Source of the DNA: Escherichia coli
GTDB taxonomy: Bacteria; Pseudomonadota; Gammaproteobacteria; Enterobacterales; Enterobacteriaceae
Strand: one strand, 5' to 3'
Length of the DNA: 64,000 bases
NCBI RefSeq assembly: GCF_003334315.1
Contig: NZ_QOWR01000006.1
Shown piece after piece: positions 59,094-61,994 of this stretch. The notes below the pieces were generated by a model that was not told the DNA's origin, ran no database searches, and saw only the letters and a program-made list of their open reading frames with translations. Numbering within the stretch: position 1 is the stretch's first letter; the number at the start of each line of letters is the position of its first letter. The position numbers and the translations under genes were made by a program.

Positions 59094-59116
59094 TCTGTTA
59101 GTTTGTAAGTCAGAAA

Positions 59117-59145
59117 GCCGCCGACATGTTCGGCGGTTTTTTTTG
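59117..59145 (+). terminator. Intrinsic terminator of the nuo operon
   Basis: gccgccga-catgt-tcggcgg hairpin followed by a T8 run, 25 bp after the nuoN stop. Confidence 0.85.
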
Positions 59146-59159
59146 GCGCTCTGACACCA

Positions 59160-59663
59160 TCACCCAACAATAACCGTCAGCGCATGATTCCCTTGTCGCA
59201 GCATACGTCGATACGCGCTAATCAGCTTTTCCATATCAAGCATGATCGAGGCAAAGAGTTGCCCCTCTAACTCTTCTGAAAAGGTCACTCCCGGATAAAT
59301 CTCCATTTCATTGAGTCGCTTAATGGAAAACTGTTTACGCAGCTCACTTCGATCCAGTGATTCCAGTCGGTCGATTGTCGCGGCTAATTCCTGATTCCAG
59401 GTCAATCCCAGGAAGCCATCTATGCCATCTTCGAGGCTGTGTTCACCAAGCACGGCACGACTCAGCGGATCATTCTTCGCGGGATCAAAAGCAGAGGTGC
59501 CTGTCAGCCCAAAGTGTAAAAAATCCCAGCGTTTATCAATATCCAGTCGGCGTAATCCTGAAAGCGTGTCATGTATATTATCCATCAAAGGTTTTTCAGT
59601 AGACTCAAGCAGTTGGTTAATCTTTTCTGAGTCAATTTCTGCAAAATAACCAATCATTCCCAT
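59160..59663 (-). CDS. yfbM: DUF1877-family protein YfbM, 167 aa
   Basis: Full-length ORF recognised as YfbM; here it sits directly after nuoN. Confidence 0.8.
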   Translation of the reverse strand: MGMIGYFAEIDSEKINQLLESTEKPLMDNIHDTLSGLRRLDIDKRWDFLHFGLTGTSAFDPAKNDPLSRAVLGEHSLEDGIDGFLGLTWNQELAATIDRLESLDRSELRKQFSIKRLNEMEIYPGVTFSEELEGQLFASIMLDMEKLISAYRRMLRQGNHALTVIVG

Positions 59664-59788
59664 TTATTTTTCCTCCATTGAATTTTATGTTTCGCATCTT
59701 AAAACAGACGAGGGAAAATAAAATGTACATGTCGCTGTTTCTGGACCCGCCTCGAGAAATTTTTATTATTTACTGTTGTGTAACAAGG

Positions 59789-60395
59789 TTATAACACCAT
59801 CTGAGCCATTTTCTGATAATTCAATCTGTCTGCTGTATCACCGGGCAAGTGGTATTGTTTATTACGATAAAAAGCGGTGTCAGTAATCATTACGGCGGGA
59901 ATATCGTGTTGCCAATAATTCAGGTGGTCAGAGAAATCAATACCGGGAATAAACCATGGGGCATTCATAGAATAAACAGATAAATCCCGGGATGATAACA
60001 ATGCCGTTTTTACCTGACGAACGGCGTTGATATCCTGTATTCTGCCGACCAGGCAATAAAGTCCCCCCGATCGGGATAAAGCCAGGACATTGCGGGTAAG
60101 GGTAATCCTGGCTACCAGGCGCAGAGTCGTAATAGCCAATCGGGGACGCCCTGCGCGGTAACTCTGGCACCGCTACTGACAAAGAACTCTTTTATATACT
60201 CTACGGACCTATTCAGATTATCAATATTGTCGGCATTACGTGGATGCACAGTTTGTGTAAGATAACGAACTGTTTTTTCTAATTGCTCAGGACTGACGTG
60301 TCGGGGCGTTGGCGATAATGCAGTGACCCAGGGTTGGTAAAAATAATCAGAGGGAGTGAAATCAGAAATAATATAACAAAAGGATTTTTTTTCAT
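59789..60395 (-). pseudogene. yfbL: Degraded yfbL-like M28-family peptidase gene
   Basis: ATG at 60395 encodes a signal-peptide-like start (MKKNPFVILFLISLPLIIF...) that hits TAG at 60279-60281 after 38 codons. Protein-like sequence resumes in a second frame and again in a third (ORF 59789..60139, M28-like C-terminus ...YHLPGDTADRLNYQKMAQMVL). The ~607-bp locus is too short for the ~323-aa protein I recall. Confidence 0.55.
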
Positions 60396-60782
60396 ATATA
60401 AATTATCAATAAAAGACGTTATTTTATCATTATTTATAATGAGTTATGAGTGTTTGTTTTATTACGGTTGTTAGATCTATACAAAAAGTATCTTTTACAG
60501 TGGCTTCGCTATTTTAAAAAGGAATTCATATAAGGAAAATATAACTATGTTATTTATTGGCAGATTGAGTTGACAGGGGGCAGAAATCAGAGGGTAAGAA
60601 AAGTCAGCAACAACAATCCACTACATCAACAGACCAGCAATCGCGTGCCGAGATACGCTGGAAATACCCGAAGATTGAACTGGCGGATGGTGTGACTGAC
60701 ATCAGTCAGTGATGACTTTTTAGCAAACTATGTTCGACCAGTCAGCATATTTGCTGACTGGTCGAATTAATTAACTATGATG

Positions 60783-61994
60783 TTAACTTACTCTTTTGCC
60801 TGATGCTCTATTTTGGGGTTGTGAGTGTTTTATTTCTAAGTCTCTATAATAATCATTGATATTTGCATCGCCATATTTATCTAAATAACAATTTCTGTTT
60901 GCCAGTCGATGTTGAAAATCAATTTCGTACTGCTCTTCTGCTGAATATTTTTTAAATCTGTCAGCATAGTTTTTTAATAACGTATAGGGGGCGCTGTCAG
61001 AATTGCTTTCCCTTTGTTCAATCACTTCCTGGGCTGCCATGCACACAAATGCACCGCAACTTTGGCTTAAGTATTGCTGAAGATCGGCATGTAAAAATAT
61101 TATCTCTGGTTCATTTAAATGAACTTTTATATTATTATTCGACATTTCTCCCATGAGTTCAGAATTAAAACTATTAATGACACGCTTAAGTGAATTTTCT
61201 TTATCATAGCCTAGTGCACGCAATGAGTTGAATATGACGCATTTTATTTGTAGTTTATTATTTTTTTTATTTACTATTTTCTGTAGCGAAACTAATATCC
61301 AGTGTCCGCCAGTATTTATGGGGAATAACTGGACTTCATTCGGCCATGATAGATCGCTCTTAATATTTTCATTGAGAGCGTCTTCCAGGTGAGTTCTGGT
61401 GGAGTAGGGGACGTAGAGACCAGTAGGATAATTGACTTGAGCATTTTTTGCATTAGCGGCGATCTTCTGAAGATAGCAAGCTATTTCATCTGTGGTTAAT
61501 TGACGATTTTTATCCCAGAAGTTTGTACCATCACTCAGTTCATTATTCTCATCATTTAAAAGCACCTTTGAAAGCGACTGTTTTTCAGATATAAGAGGAA
61601 TTTCATCACCGATAATTGTCATTAATTTCGAAGGGGAGAATAGTTTTTTGAACAGGAGATCATCTGAATCATGTGATTTGAGGGGGGAGTTGGTTGCGAT
61701 ATGTGCCAGATTATATAATTTTAAACAAGCATTTTTGATAAGTCGGATAATCGATAGGGTCTCATTTGTTGGGGTTCTAACAATATGGTAAAGAATATCT
61801 TCAGCTTCTTTCCCAAATTTATCATAACCTAACGCAATATTATGCAGTAACTCAATGCTTTCTTCATCTCCGGATAACGCTGTTTTTTTTAAAGACTGCA
61901 GTAATTCCTCGGTCACAGTAAATTTTTCTGCAAATGTCTGACTGAGTTGCGTTTGAGATAATTGACAATAATTGCTGACAACTGTAACCATCAT
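60783..61994 (-). CDS. elaD: ElaD, Ulp1/CE-clan cysteine protease (deubiquitinase-like), 403 aa
   Basis: Recognised sequence; catalytic-type His (GGHWILVS) and Cys (QSCGAFVCM); strongly AT-rich coding sequence. Confidence 0.85.

Follow-up and report, generated by a model that had tools for sequence, protein, structure and literature searches.

The nuoN–rbn interval of Escherichia coli: a probable multi-allelic variable locus seen in a compact haplotype with decayed yfbL and yfbK

Introduction

In E. coli K-12 the genes yfbP, yfbO, yfbN, yfbM, yfbL and yfbK separate nuoN from elaD, as a first-pass annotation of the present sequence had stated, and the compact arrangement described here is not that of K-12. 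The locus thus raises the question of whether genes have been lost from the window (the whole stretch of 64,000 nucleotides analysed) or whether K-12 has gained them. We consider it probable that the core genes nuoN and rbn enclose a variable spot with multiple alleles, and that the window carries one of its haplotypes, made up of an empty island site, an elaD cassette and the products of deletion decay.

Results

Layout of the locus

From left to right the locus comprises nuoN with its terminator, intact yfbM, a yfbL pseudogene of 630 bp, 387 bp of AT-rich sequence and intact elaD, with rbn beyond:

57636-59093, plus strand: nuoN, final gene of the nuo operon and conserved left flank (ORF; 100% identical to K-12 NuoN by tblastn)
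~59114-59144, plus strand: intrinsic terminator of nuoN, a GC-rich hairpin with a T-run (RNA fold of -21.6 kcal/mol, z -4.6)
59160-59663, minus strand: yfbM, intact, 167 aa (166/167 residues as in K-12 YfbM)
59766-60395, minus strand: pseudogene of yfbL, an M28 metallopeptidase gene, shortened from the 972 nt of the intact gene to 630 nt (stops in every frame; indels relative to three intact alleles)
60783-61994, minus strand: elaD, intact deubiquitinase gene, 403 aa, Cys313 present (NCBIfam NF008812 ElaD/SseL, scoring 451.7 bits where the cutoff is 250)
62182-63099, minus strand: rbn (ribonuclease BN), conserved right flank (100% identical to K-12 Rbn)

Positions 1-59141 form a single collinear match to K-12 (99.69%). 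K-12 and another Escherichia species share the nuoN terminator, and none of 200 shuffled sequences reached an equal folding stability; a promoter and terminator scan, which gave counts not above those of shuffled sequence, missed this terminator, and it was folding that confirmed it. The yfbM stop follows at 59160, 15 bp past the T-run, and matching genomes carry the annotation "YfbM family protein" for this gene. This layout was described correctly in the first-pass annotation, as were the size of the yfbL remnant (about 600 bp), the AT-rich stretch before elaD (60396-60782, GC of about 0.31-0.40) and the missing ORFs, for tblastn with K-12 YfbK, YfbN, YfbO and YfbP gave no match in the entire window. 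Its count of two indel boundaries flanking yfbM and the yfbL remnant proved too low: we find four large events, namely the island indel, a 326-bp deletion within yfbL and two deletions within yfbK, together with five small deletions in yfbL. Nor is this the sole accessory part of the window, as had been supposed, since elaB is also cut, after codon 39, by the end of an IS1 at 63797. An Rfam scan of positions 58800-62400 at a permissive threshold returned sub-threshold chance matches only.

Strain W5-6 has the arrangement of the window base for base, and independent complete genomes of O157:H7, ATCC 8739 and many other strains match it at 96-99% identity. That the collapsed region is an assembly or sequencing artefact can, on these grounds, be practically dismissed.

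Distribution of arrangements among strains

Haplotypes were surveyed in 5,426 complete E. coli genomes, a biased collection, and the frequencies given here are those of that collection. The arrangement of the window is the commonest single one, found in about 37% of the genomes, including O157:H7 and ATCC 8739; the underlying count of about 1,950-2,090 genomes derives from 40 evenly spaced matches, of which the first 15 show the compact arrangement in one piece. Across strains at least eight arrangements occur between nuoN and rbn, which marks the interval as a hotspot of genome plasticity, and the variability that had been proposed for the segment is thereby borne out. K-12 MG1655 (nuoN-yfbP-yfbO-yfbN-yfbM-yfbL-yfbK-elaD-rbn) shares with the window both flanks, yfbM, elaD and the boundaries of the elaD cassette, but differs from it in carrying a 2,561-bp island and intact copies of yfbL (972 nt) and yfbK (1,728 nt), and in a yfbL-yfbK intergenic region that is only about 69% identical. 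O157:H7, O55:H7, ATCC 8739 and about 2,000 other complete genomes have the 326-bp yfbL junction and the yfbK deletion structure of the window and no island, although the secondary small deletions vary by lineage; in these genomes the RefSeq annotation of the yfbL remnant is a frameshifted hypothetical protein. K-12 should not be taken as the reference here: the arrangement met most often in E. coli is the compact one.

The nuoN–yfbM junction and the yfbP-yfbO-yfbN island

Between the nuoN terminator and yfbM the window and K-12 part over a few nucleotides:

59142-59158, unstranded: 17-bp empty-site filler, TTTGGCGCTCTGACACC, where K-12 has the 2,561-bp yfbP-yfbO-yfbN island (K-12 homology ends at 59141 and resumes at 59159)

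The same 17 bp are present in the island-free strains M7424 and 035152 and in L006, a locus from a divergent species, and the K-12 island replaces them without duplicating them. The island has the atypical base composition of a genomic island (39.8% GC versus 57.2% in nuoN). It is found in 1,015 of the 5,426 complete genomes (18.7%) and is nearly clonal, with at least 99% identity in 985 of the 1,015 carriers. Because the empty site is widespread and conserved across species, and because the island is low in GC, confined to this minority and nearly clonal, K-12 would represent the minority, expanded state. Parsimony over few outgroups thus indicates that yfbP-yfbO-yfbN is most likely an insertion in a K-12-type lineage and not a loss in the window, so that the notion of a compressed segment most likely fails for these three genes and holds for yfbK and yfbL only.

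The opposite direction, in which a K-12-like ancestor possessed all six yfb genes and deletions took out yfbK, yfbN, yfbO and yfbP here, seems improbable to us, though it has points in its favor. All six genes are present in K-12, yfbK and yfbL have truly decayed by deletion in the window, and in L005, the sampled Escherichia lineage nearest to E. coli, a yfbN homologue adjoins yfbM at this very site; an ancient island that was lost repeatedly is therefore conceivable. However, repeated independent deletions would not be expected to leave the same 17-bp filler in different species, tblastn detects no island remnant in the window, and the composition, frequency and near-clonality of the island likewise speak against loss. 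Other cargo has used the site as well: a variant, yfbO'-yfbN'-SMI1/KNR4, occupies it in strain PapRG-06-5, and a yfbN homologue lies there in Escherichia sp. MOD1-EC7003. The E. albertii contig stops directly after yfbM.

Neither the three small ORFs of the island nor its ends show the classical marks of an integrative island that were looked for (a recombinase domain, flanking direct repeats), and in Pfam and NCBIfam the YfbP protein matched TPR repeats only, while YfbN and YfbO had no significant match. A cluster of 11 SNPs lies in the final 200 bp of nuoN before the junction. We considered whether this cluster might be DNA imported with the island, but the variants are mosaic and are common to island-free strains, and no imported tract was identified.

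Remnants of yfbK in the AT-rich stretch

The 387-bp stretch had been read as an anonymous spacer. Its low GC content is real, but it consists of the intergenic region of the divergent genes yfbL and yfbK, three remnants of yfbK and a hairpin:

60547-60650, plus strand: yfbK 5' remnant, whose reading frame opens with the ATG at 60547, has lost its lipoprotein signal and ends at a stop after 8 codons (alignment with the yfbK starts of K-12 and L004)
60651-60670, plus strand: internal yfbK fragment of 20 nt, from about nt 1453-1473 of the gene (19/20 matches to the L004 allele, 17/18 to K-12)
60673-60712, plus strand: yfbK 3' remnant, the final 40 nt with the stop codon at 60710-60712 (K-12 homology resumes at 60673, which is K-12 locus position 9405)
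60733-60766, unstranded: perfect hairpin with 15-bp arms between the convergent yfbK remnant and elaD (inverted repeat; fold of -29.1 kcal/mol on one strand, z -9.2, and of -27.3 kcal/mol on the other, z -9.8)
60330-60650, unstranded: divergent patch spanning the yfbL signal-peptide codons, the yfbL-yfbK intergenic region and the yfbK 5' remnant (65-69% identity to the alleles of yfbK-positive E. coli; flanks 96-100%)

The 20-nt fragment sits between a deletion of about 1.32 kb and one of 213 bp (gaps of 1350 and 213 columns in the MAFFT alignment), and in local alignment its score was reached by none of 500 shuffled sequences. The hairpin is likely a bidirectional terminator, a function predicted from its structure. 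In the survey the yfbK core was found in 2,540 genomes and the deleted spacer of the window type in 2,530 (47% and 47% of 5,426), and both classes are spread across phylogroups. Strain M7424 shares the yfbK deletion of the window and has an intact yfbL. L006 also lacks yfbK, but through other breakpoints (K-12 locus positions 7835 and 9304), and independent loss of yfbK therefore does occur; a single ancient deletion shared with L006, which we had entertained, was rejected for this reason once the fragment at 60651-60670 had been placed at nt 1453-1473 of yfbK.

The patch to the left of the first deletion, whose divergence was measured by sliding identity, by alignment and by a matrix of segment identities, is the one feature that simple in-place decay does not account for, given its identity of 69%. 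It is possible, though we hold it to be the less probable case, that the yfbK-deleted allele, or at least the patch of about 320 bp, was not formed in place: the allele could have the age of the genus itself, or it could have been imported from an unsampled relative within Escherichia, perhaps through illegitimate recombination anchored in homology, with yfbK deleted in the course of the import. Identity of the patch to the alleles of yfbK-positive E. coli is 68.7-69.1%, whereas K-12 and E. albertii are 73.8% identical over the same segment. It runs up to the first yfbK deletion junction; just beyond, the 20-nt fragment is again E. coli-like (19/20). The near-equal numbers of the two classes, and a diversity within the deleted class that extends down to 87% identity, point the same way. 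On the other hand, a search for a donor yielded none, the nearest sampled lineage, L006, being only 78% identical; the region is AT-rich, unconstrained once yfbK is lost and fast-evolving between species, so that the divergence may be overstated through effects of alignment and rate; and the separate breakpoints of L006 illustrate that yfbK can be lost independently. The patch is as far from the alleles of yfbK-positive E. coli as another species would be. We can only tentatively suggest that it is a polymorphism of great age which E. coli has maintained, or else the trace left by one event of homology-anchored illegitimate recombination with DNA of an unsampled Escherichia that deleted yfbK and then spread through the species, and we would rate this as rather doubtful.

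The yfbL pseudogene

The remnant is homologous to yfbL along its length. Positions 59766-60141 are 96-97% identical to yfbL of K-12, M7424 and 035152, and 60142-60395 are homologous too; the two parts meet at the main lesion:

60141/60142, unstranded: junction of the 326-bp yfbL deletion (codons 88-196 lost, including the HYDS, DDNASG and EE motifs)

Six deletions and no insertions have affected the gene (-7 at 59800, -1 at 60051, -1 at 60092, -326 at 60141/60142, -1 at 60338 and -6 at 60384), five of them frameshifting. The Pfam M28 domain covers residues 95-317 of intact YfbL, and the three lost motifs correspond to the established zinc ligands of family M28; with its frame disrupted and catalytic parts gone, the remnant is a pseudogene of an M28 peptidase, and in W5-6, the strain of identical sequence, RefSeq marks it as a pseudogene with the label "frameshifted". 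The 326-bp junction is common to five genomes (the window, O157:H7, ATCC 8739, ET846 and CAVP880), and the segment is missing from 2,115 of the 5,426 genomes (about 39%). The smaller deletions are nested or lineage-specific: among the genomes compared, that at 59800 is found in the window and CAVP880 only, and two of the 1-nt deletions also occur in O157:H7.

Mobile elements at the junctions

IS scars or short direct repeats had been anticipated at the boundaries. A search for IS ends, inverted repeats and target duplications at 59142-59158, at 60141/60142, at 60650-60672 and at both ends of the island in K-12 gave only short repeats at chance level, and the IS1 at 63797 is the only IS sequence of the area. 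It is very unlikely, in our estimate, that insertion sequences inserted here, deleted adjacent DNA and left scars. IS1-associated deletions of the region are known from strains E3 (yfbN to elaD) and EC21Z-151 (yfbL to elaD), and the window's own IS1, in elaB, is 1.8 kb away; nevertheless, each of the three junctions in the window is free of the elements sought, the junction sequence is continuous with yfbL and yfbK sequence, and the same junctions occur in genomes with no IS nearby.

The elaD cassette

ElaD, which had been taken as the fixed right-hand boundary of the variable segment, is itself inserted:

60686-62178, unstranded: elaD cassette of 1,493 bp, with an elaD gene of 35% GC (boundaries from AR_0089 versus K-12)

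The cassette stands in place of 144 bp, comprising the ancestral yfbK tail and the yfbK-rbn spacer, of the elaD-less strain AR_0089 and of other Escherichia lineages. In L005, L006 and L007, rbn adjoins yfbK or a yfbK remnant with no elaD between them. These boundaries and the overwritten yfbK tail are defined in the present analysis; a term search of Wang et al. 2025 (PMC12575377) returned nothing on yfbK, yfbL, rbn or the flanking or genomic context. A 30-nt inverted repeat flanking elaD with 77% complementarity (60667-60696/62198-62227) was discarded as a chance product of similar C-terminal codons in yfbK and rbn.

The product is a full-length match to the ElaD/SseL family that retains the catalytic cysteine, and 397 of its 403 residues are identical to K-12 ElaD. 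Cys313 is essential, and the C313S exchange abolishes activity (PMC1847702). The gene is present in 4,474 of the 5,426 complete E. coli genomes, absent from the three other Escherichia lineages examined, and a pseudogene in some genomes of the compact arrangement, such as ATCC 8739 and CAVP880. This pattern agrees with the published polymorphism (Catic et al. 2007, PMC1847702; Wang et al. 2025, PMC12575377), in which elaD occurs in K-12, intestinal pathotypes and most strains, whereas B2/ExPEC strains lack it or have it as a pseudogene.

Discussion

The order of events may be reconstructed as follows. The starting arrangement would have been nuoN-yfbM-yfbL-yfbK-rbn, which is common to other Escherichia lineages. 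The nuoN-yfbM junction of the window would be the original, unoccupied one, and a minority including K-12 would have gained a low-GC cargo island, either yfbP-yfbO-yfbN or a variant. A cassette, likewise of low GC and carrying elaD, probably overwrote the final codons of yfbK and the yfbK-rbn spacer. We infer that yfbK was lost before yfbL, by two internal deletions after which its 5' stub would have degenerated, because strains with the same yfbK deletion keep an intact yfbL. The second loss would have been that of yfbL, through the out-of-frame 326-bp deletion that took the metal-binding core of the peptidase. Small lineage-specific deletions, all of them losses, presumably came later, while yfbM and elaD stayed intact. 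No mobile element would have taken part, since the joints have the look of simple deletions of the illegitimate or slipped kind. Homologous recombination within the core genes on either side is most likely what carried the alleles from lineage to lineage.

Bacterial pseudogenes decay with a deletional bias, which Mira, Ochman and Moran reportedly set out in 2001. All six lesions in yfbL and both in yfbK are deletions, with a shared primary lesion and secondary ones that differ by lineage; the only unusual point is the very high divergence beside the yfbK deletion. The locus is thus a case of ordinary accessory-genome decay and raises no new biological question of wide interest, but it offers a clean, datable instance of stepwise decay from yfbK through yfbL to nested small deletions. 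For work on elaD, a deubiquitinase gene studied as a possible host-interaction factor, it places the gene in a defined low-GC cassette of 1.5 kb over the end of yfbK. Studies of YfbK, YfbL and YfbM may take into account that about half of the surveyed complete E. coli genomes lack yfbK and about 39% lack the catalytic segment of yfbL. In every inspected locus that bears it, yfbM is intact, which argues that YfbM may work independently of YfbK and YfbL.

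Gene layout and frequency of the compact arrangement

The locus shows pseudogene decay and accessory-genome flux of an ordinary kind, at a spot probably shuffled by recombination. The first-pass annotation had described the segment between nuoN and elaD as compressed relative to K-12 and as lacking yfbK, yfbN, yfbO and yfbP. The coordinates and the absence of these genes are confirmed: tblastn with the K-12 YfbK, YfbN, YfbO and YfbP proteins gave no match anywhere in the window, and the features lie as follows:

57636-59093, nuoN, left flank
~59114-59144, strong hairpin and T-run, 3′ of nuoN
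59160-59663, minus strand, yfbM, intact, 166/167 identical to K-12
59766-60395, minus strand, yfbL remnant, 630 nt, with in-frame stops
60396-60782, AT-rich stretch of 387 bp
60783-61994, minus strand, elaD, intact, 397/403 identical to K-12, Cys313 kept
after elaD, rbn, last gene of the locus

The yfbM stop codon is found 15 bp beyond the hairpin and T-run of nuoN, and ElaD, at 451.7 bits, is above the NCBIfam ElaD/SseL cutoff (250). The K-12 order is nuoN, yfbP, yfbO, yfbN, yfbM, yfbL, yfbK, elaD, rbn; the K-12 gene order given in the first-pass annotation is thus accurate, and the K-12 arrangement is not compact. Compression describes the yfbK and yfbL losses well, but not the nuoN side, where K-12 would represent the expanded state.

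The window belongs to E. coli: among 5,426 complete genomes of the species, 5,425 gave at least a partial match to 58600-62500, over which strain W5-6 is 100% identical to the window. The segment is indeed strain-variable, with at least eight arrangements seen between nuoN and rbn:

K-12 type
island variant carrying yfbO′ and yfbN′ plus an SMI1/KNR4 gene
island-free, yfbL and yfbK intact
island-free, yfbL and yfbK intact, without elaD
yfbL intact, yfbK deleted
window type (compact)
bigger deletion extending into elaD
IS1-associated deletions

The compact arrangement occurs in ~1,950-2,090 genomes (about 37%), as bracketed from 40 evenly spaced matches, of which rows 1-15 showed it in a single piece, and is thus the commonest single haplotype; the K-12 arrangement is about half as frequent. 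Members of the compact type include O157:H7, O55:H7, O111 and ATCC 8739. Thousands of public genomes already contain this type with annotation, and the yfbL remnant is there marked as frameshifted. Only incidental mentions of yfbK, yfbL and yfbM were found in the literature, and in a term search of the 2025 elaD paper (PMC12575377) neither yfbK, yfbL and rbn nor the genomic surroundings of elaD came up. One incidental mention is an LldR gSELEX peak within K-12 yfbK; the underlying sequence is missing from the window.

The nuoN–yfbM junction and the yfbP-O-N island

Homology to K-12 ends at 59141 and restarts at 59159, so that 2,561 bp carrying yfbP-yfbO-yfbN in K-12 (the island) correspond to 17 bp in the window, TTTGGCGCTCTGACACC. 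This junction and its 17-bp filler are kept in a divergent lineage, the genome deposited as E. coli SCPM-O-B-8794 (TGTGGCGCCCTGACACC). The island has a GC content of 39.8% and is present in 1,015 of the 5,426 genomes (18.7%), in 985 of them at ≥99% identity. Conservation of the filler in the divergent lineage, together with the GC content, low frequency and near-clonality of the island, points to the empty site being original and the island a gain in the K-12-type lineage. A less likely alternative is that the island is old and has been lost repeatedly, which would fit the yfbN homologue that Escherichia sp. MOD1-EC7003 carries at this position.

Alternative cargo occupies the site of window 59142-59158 in E. 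coli PapRG-06-5 (locus positions 4868-6758), with yfbO-like and yfbN-like genes and an SMI1/KNR4-family gene that replaces yfbP, and in MOD1-EC7003 (locus positions 11580-12673), with the yfbN homologue. SMI1/KNR4 proteins are frequently immunity proteins of polymorphic toxin systems, and from their presence in the variant cargo the K-12 island might consist of clustered orphan genes of the immunity type; searches of Pfam and NCBIfam gave nothing supportive of this except TPR repeats in YfbP.

Relative to K-12, 11 substitutions fall within 58934-59129, the final 200 bp ahead of the island junction, against none in the preceding ~1.9 kb. The variant states are mosaic across island-bearing and island-free strains, so the stretch would mark a recombination-rich boundary rather than a clean imported tract.

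Loss of yfbK and decay of yfbL

Two deletions, one of ~1.32 kb and one of 213 bp, removed yfbK from the window. Its remains, and the hairpin that follows them, are:

ATG at 60547, decayed yfbK 5′ stub, with eight codons before a stop and a destroyed lipoprotein signal
60651-60670, internal yfbK fragment of 20 nt, 19/20 match to yfbK nt 1453-1473
60673-60712, yfbK 3′ remnant, last 40 nt
60733-60766, hairpin with perfect 15-bp arms between the yfbK remnant and elaD, likely a terminator

The score of the 20-nt fragment was equalled by none of 500 shuffles. The 387-bp "spacer" is therefore the yfbL–yfbK divergent intergenic region plus three yfbK remnants and the likely terminator. The IS scars and repeats suggested for the junctions did not materialize: none of them showed an IS end, an inverted repeat or a target duplication, and no RNA families were detected in the region. 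The deleted yfbK core is present in 2,540 of the 5,426 genomes (46.8%) and the window-type yfbK-deleted spacer in 2,530 (46.6%).

A frameshifting deletion of 326 bp at 60141/60142 takes codons 88-196 out of the 323 of yfbL, and the M28 peptidase domain (residues 95-317) thereby loses its HYDS, DDNASG and EE motifs. The deleted segment is present in 3,311 of the 5,426 genomes (61.0%) and absent from 2,115, an upper bound with which the count of the compact type is consistent. Comparison with K-12 revealed five further deletions (−7 at 59800, −1 at 60051, −1 at 60092, −1 at 60338 and −6 at 60384) and no insertions. Among five genomes compared, the 326-bp deletion is common to all (the window, CAVP880, ET846, ATCC 8739 and O157:H7), whereas the small ones are nested or lineage-specific, the −7 being confined to the window and CAVP880 and two −1 deletions being shared with O157:H7. 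The history of yfbL is the expected one of a single primary inactivating deletion followed by gradual erosion through losses only. Since M7424 combines the same yfbK deletion structure as the window with an intact yfbL, we infer that yfbK was lost first.

SCPM-O-B-8794 retains yfbL and yfbM despite its own yfbK loss, an internal deletion of ~1.47 kb (locus positions 11100-11380, reverse complement). Its breakpoints lie elsewhere (K-12 locus 7835/9304), so the loss there is independent, and yfbK has been lost convergently in this lineage and in E. coli.

A divergent patch (~60330-60650), spanning the intergenic region together with the signal-peptide codons of yfbL and the stub of yfbK, is a minor population-genetic curiosity of the locus. 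Its identity to yfbK+ E. coli alleles is 65-69%, against 96-100% in the flanks and 73.8% for the same segment between K-12 and E. albertii. Its end coincides with the first yfbK junction, and resemblance to E. coli returns in the 20-nt fragment immediately beyond. Identity to the window is 91% in M7424 and as low as 87% within the yfbK-deleted class. Relaxed constraint after yfbK loss accounts for this diversity within the class, but leaves the ~31% gap between the two allele classes unaccounted for. A very old allele, or import from an unsampled relative, perhaps together with the yfbK deletion, is a tentative and rather doubtful explanation; no donor was found, the closest sampled lineage being 78% identical.

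Outgroups and the elaD cassette

When each species was represented by one genome, relatives of yfbL with more than 50% identity were confined to Escherichia, the next (37-48%) being from unrelated phyla and Acinetobacter. The order is rbn-yfbK-yfbL-yfbM-yfbN in MOD1-EC7003, rbn-[yfbK remnant]-yfbL-yfbM-nuoN in SCPM-O-B-8794 (rbn 86% identical) and rbn-yfbK-yfbL-yfbM in E. albertii. From these gene orders we conclude that the common arrangement is nuoN-yfbM-yfbL-yfbK-rbn, which E. coli AR_0089 has retained. elaD is absent from all three outgroup loci, and between AR_0089 and K-12, 1,493 bp (window 60686-62178) replace 144 bp comprising the last codons of yfbK and the yfbK–rbn spacer. On both grounds elaD, with a GC content of 35%, is an insertion.

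According to published work, K-12 and intestinal pathotypes have elaD, ExPEC/B2 strains lack it or have it as a pseudogene, and 66.6% of 530 strains carry it (PMC1847702, PMC12575377). Our data likewise show a presence/absence polymorphism, with elaD in 4,474 of 5,426 genomes (82.5%). An internal stop or frameshift makes it a pseudogene in the annotation of ATCC 8739 (locus positions 2402-3625), CAVP880 (2384-3603) and 035152 (5601-6820), strains otherwise arranged like the window or of the yfbK+ type; elaD too is therefore decaying in parts of the population, while the window's copy is intact. A 30-nt inverted repeat (60667-60696 and 62198-62227, 77% complementary) brackets elaD. It stems from alike C-terminal codons of yfbK (..IELADGVTD..) and rbn (..TELANDFTV..) and is probably due to chance, though near both cassette edges.

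Other variation in the window

The first-pass annotation had found clear accessory-genome behaviour in the nuoN–elaD segment alone. This holds for 1-59141, a single collinear match to K-12 at 99.69%, but not for the right end, where an IS1 end cuts elaB (start 63680) off after codon 39. Collinearity with K-12 extends to 63796, and the remaining 204 bases (63797-64000) have matches in IS1A/IS1B copies, at tens of thousands of sites across E. coli genomes. In W5-6 elaB is intact, unlike in the window, despite the identity of the two over 58600-62500, so that the window derives from another strain or isolate. A second cluster, of 14 substitutions relative to K-12 in an otherwise near-identical nuo operon, lies at 54000-54750 in the nuoL region and is probably a short recombination tract.
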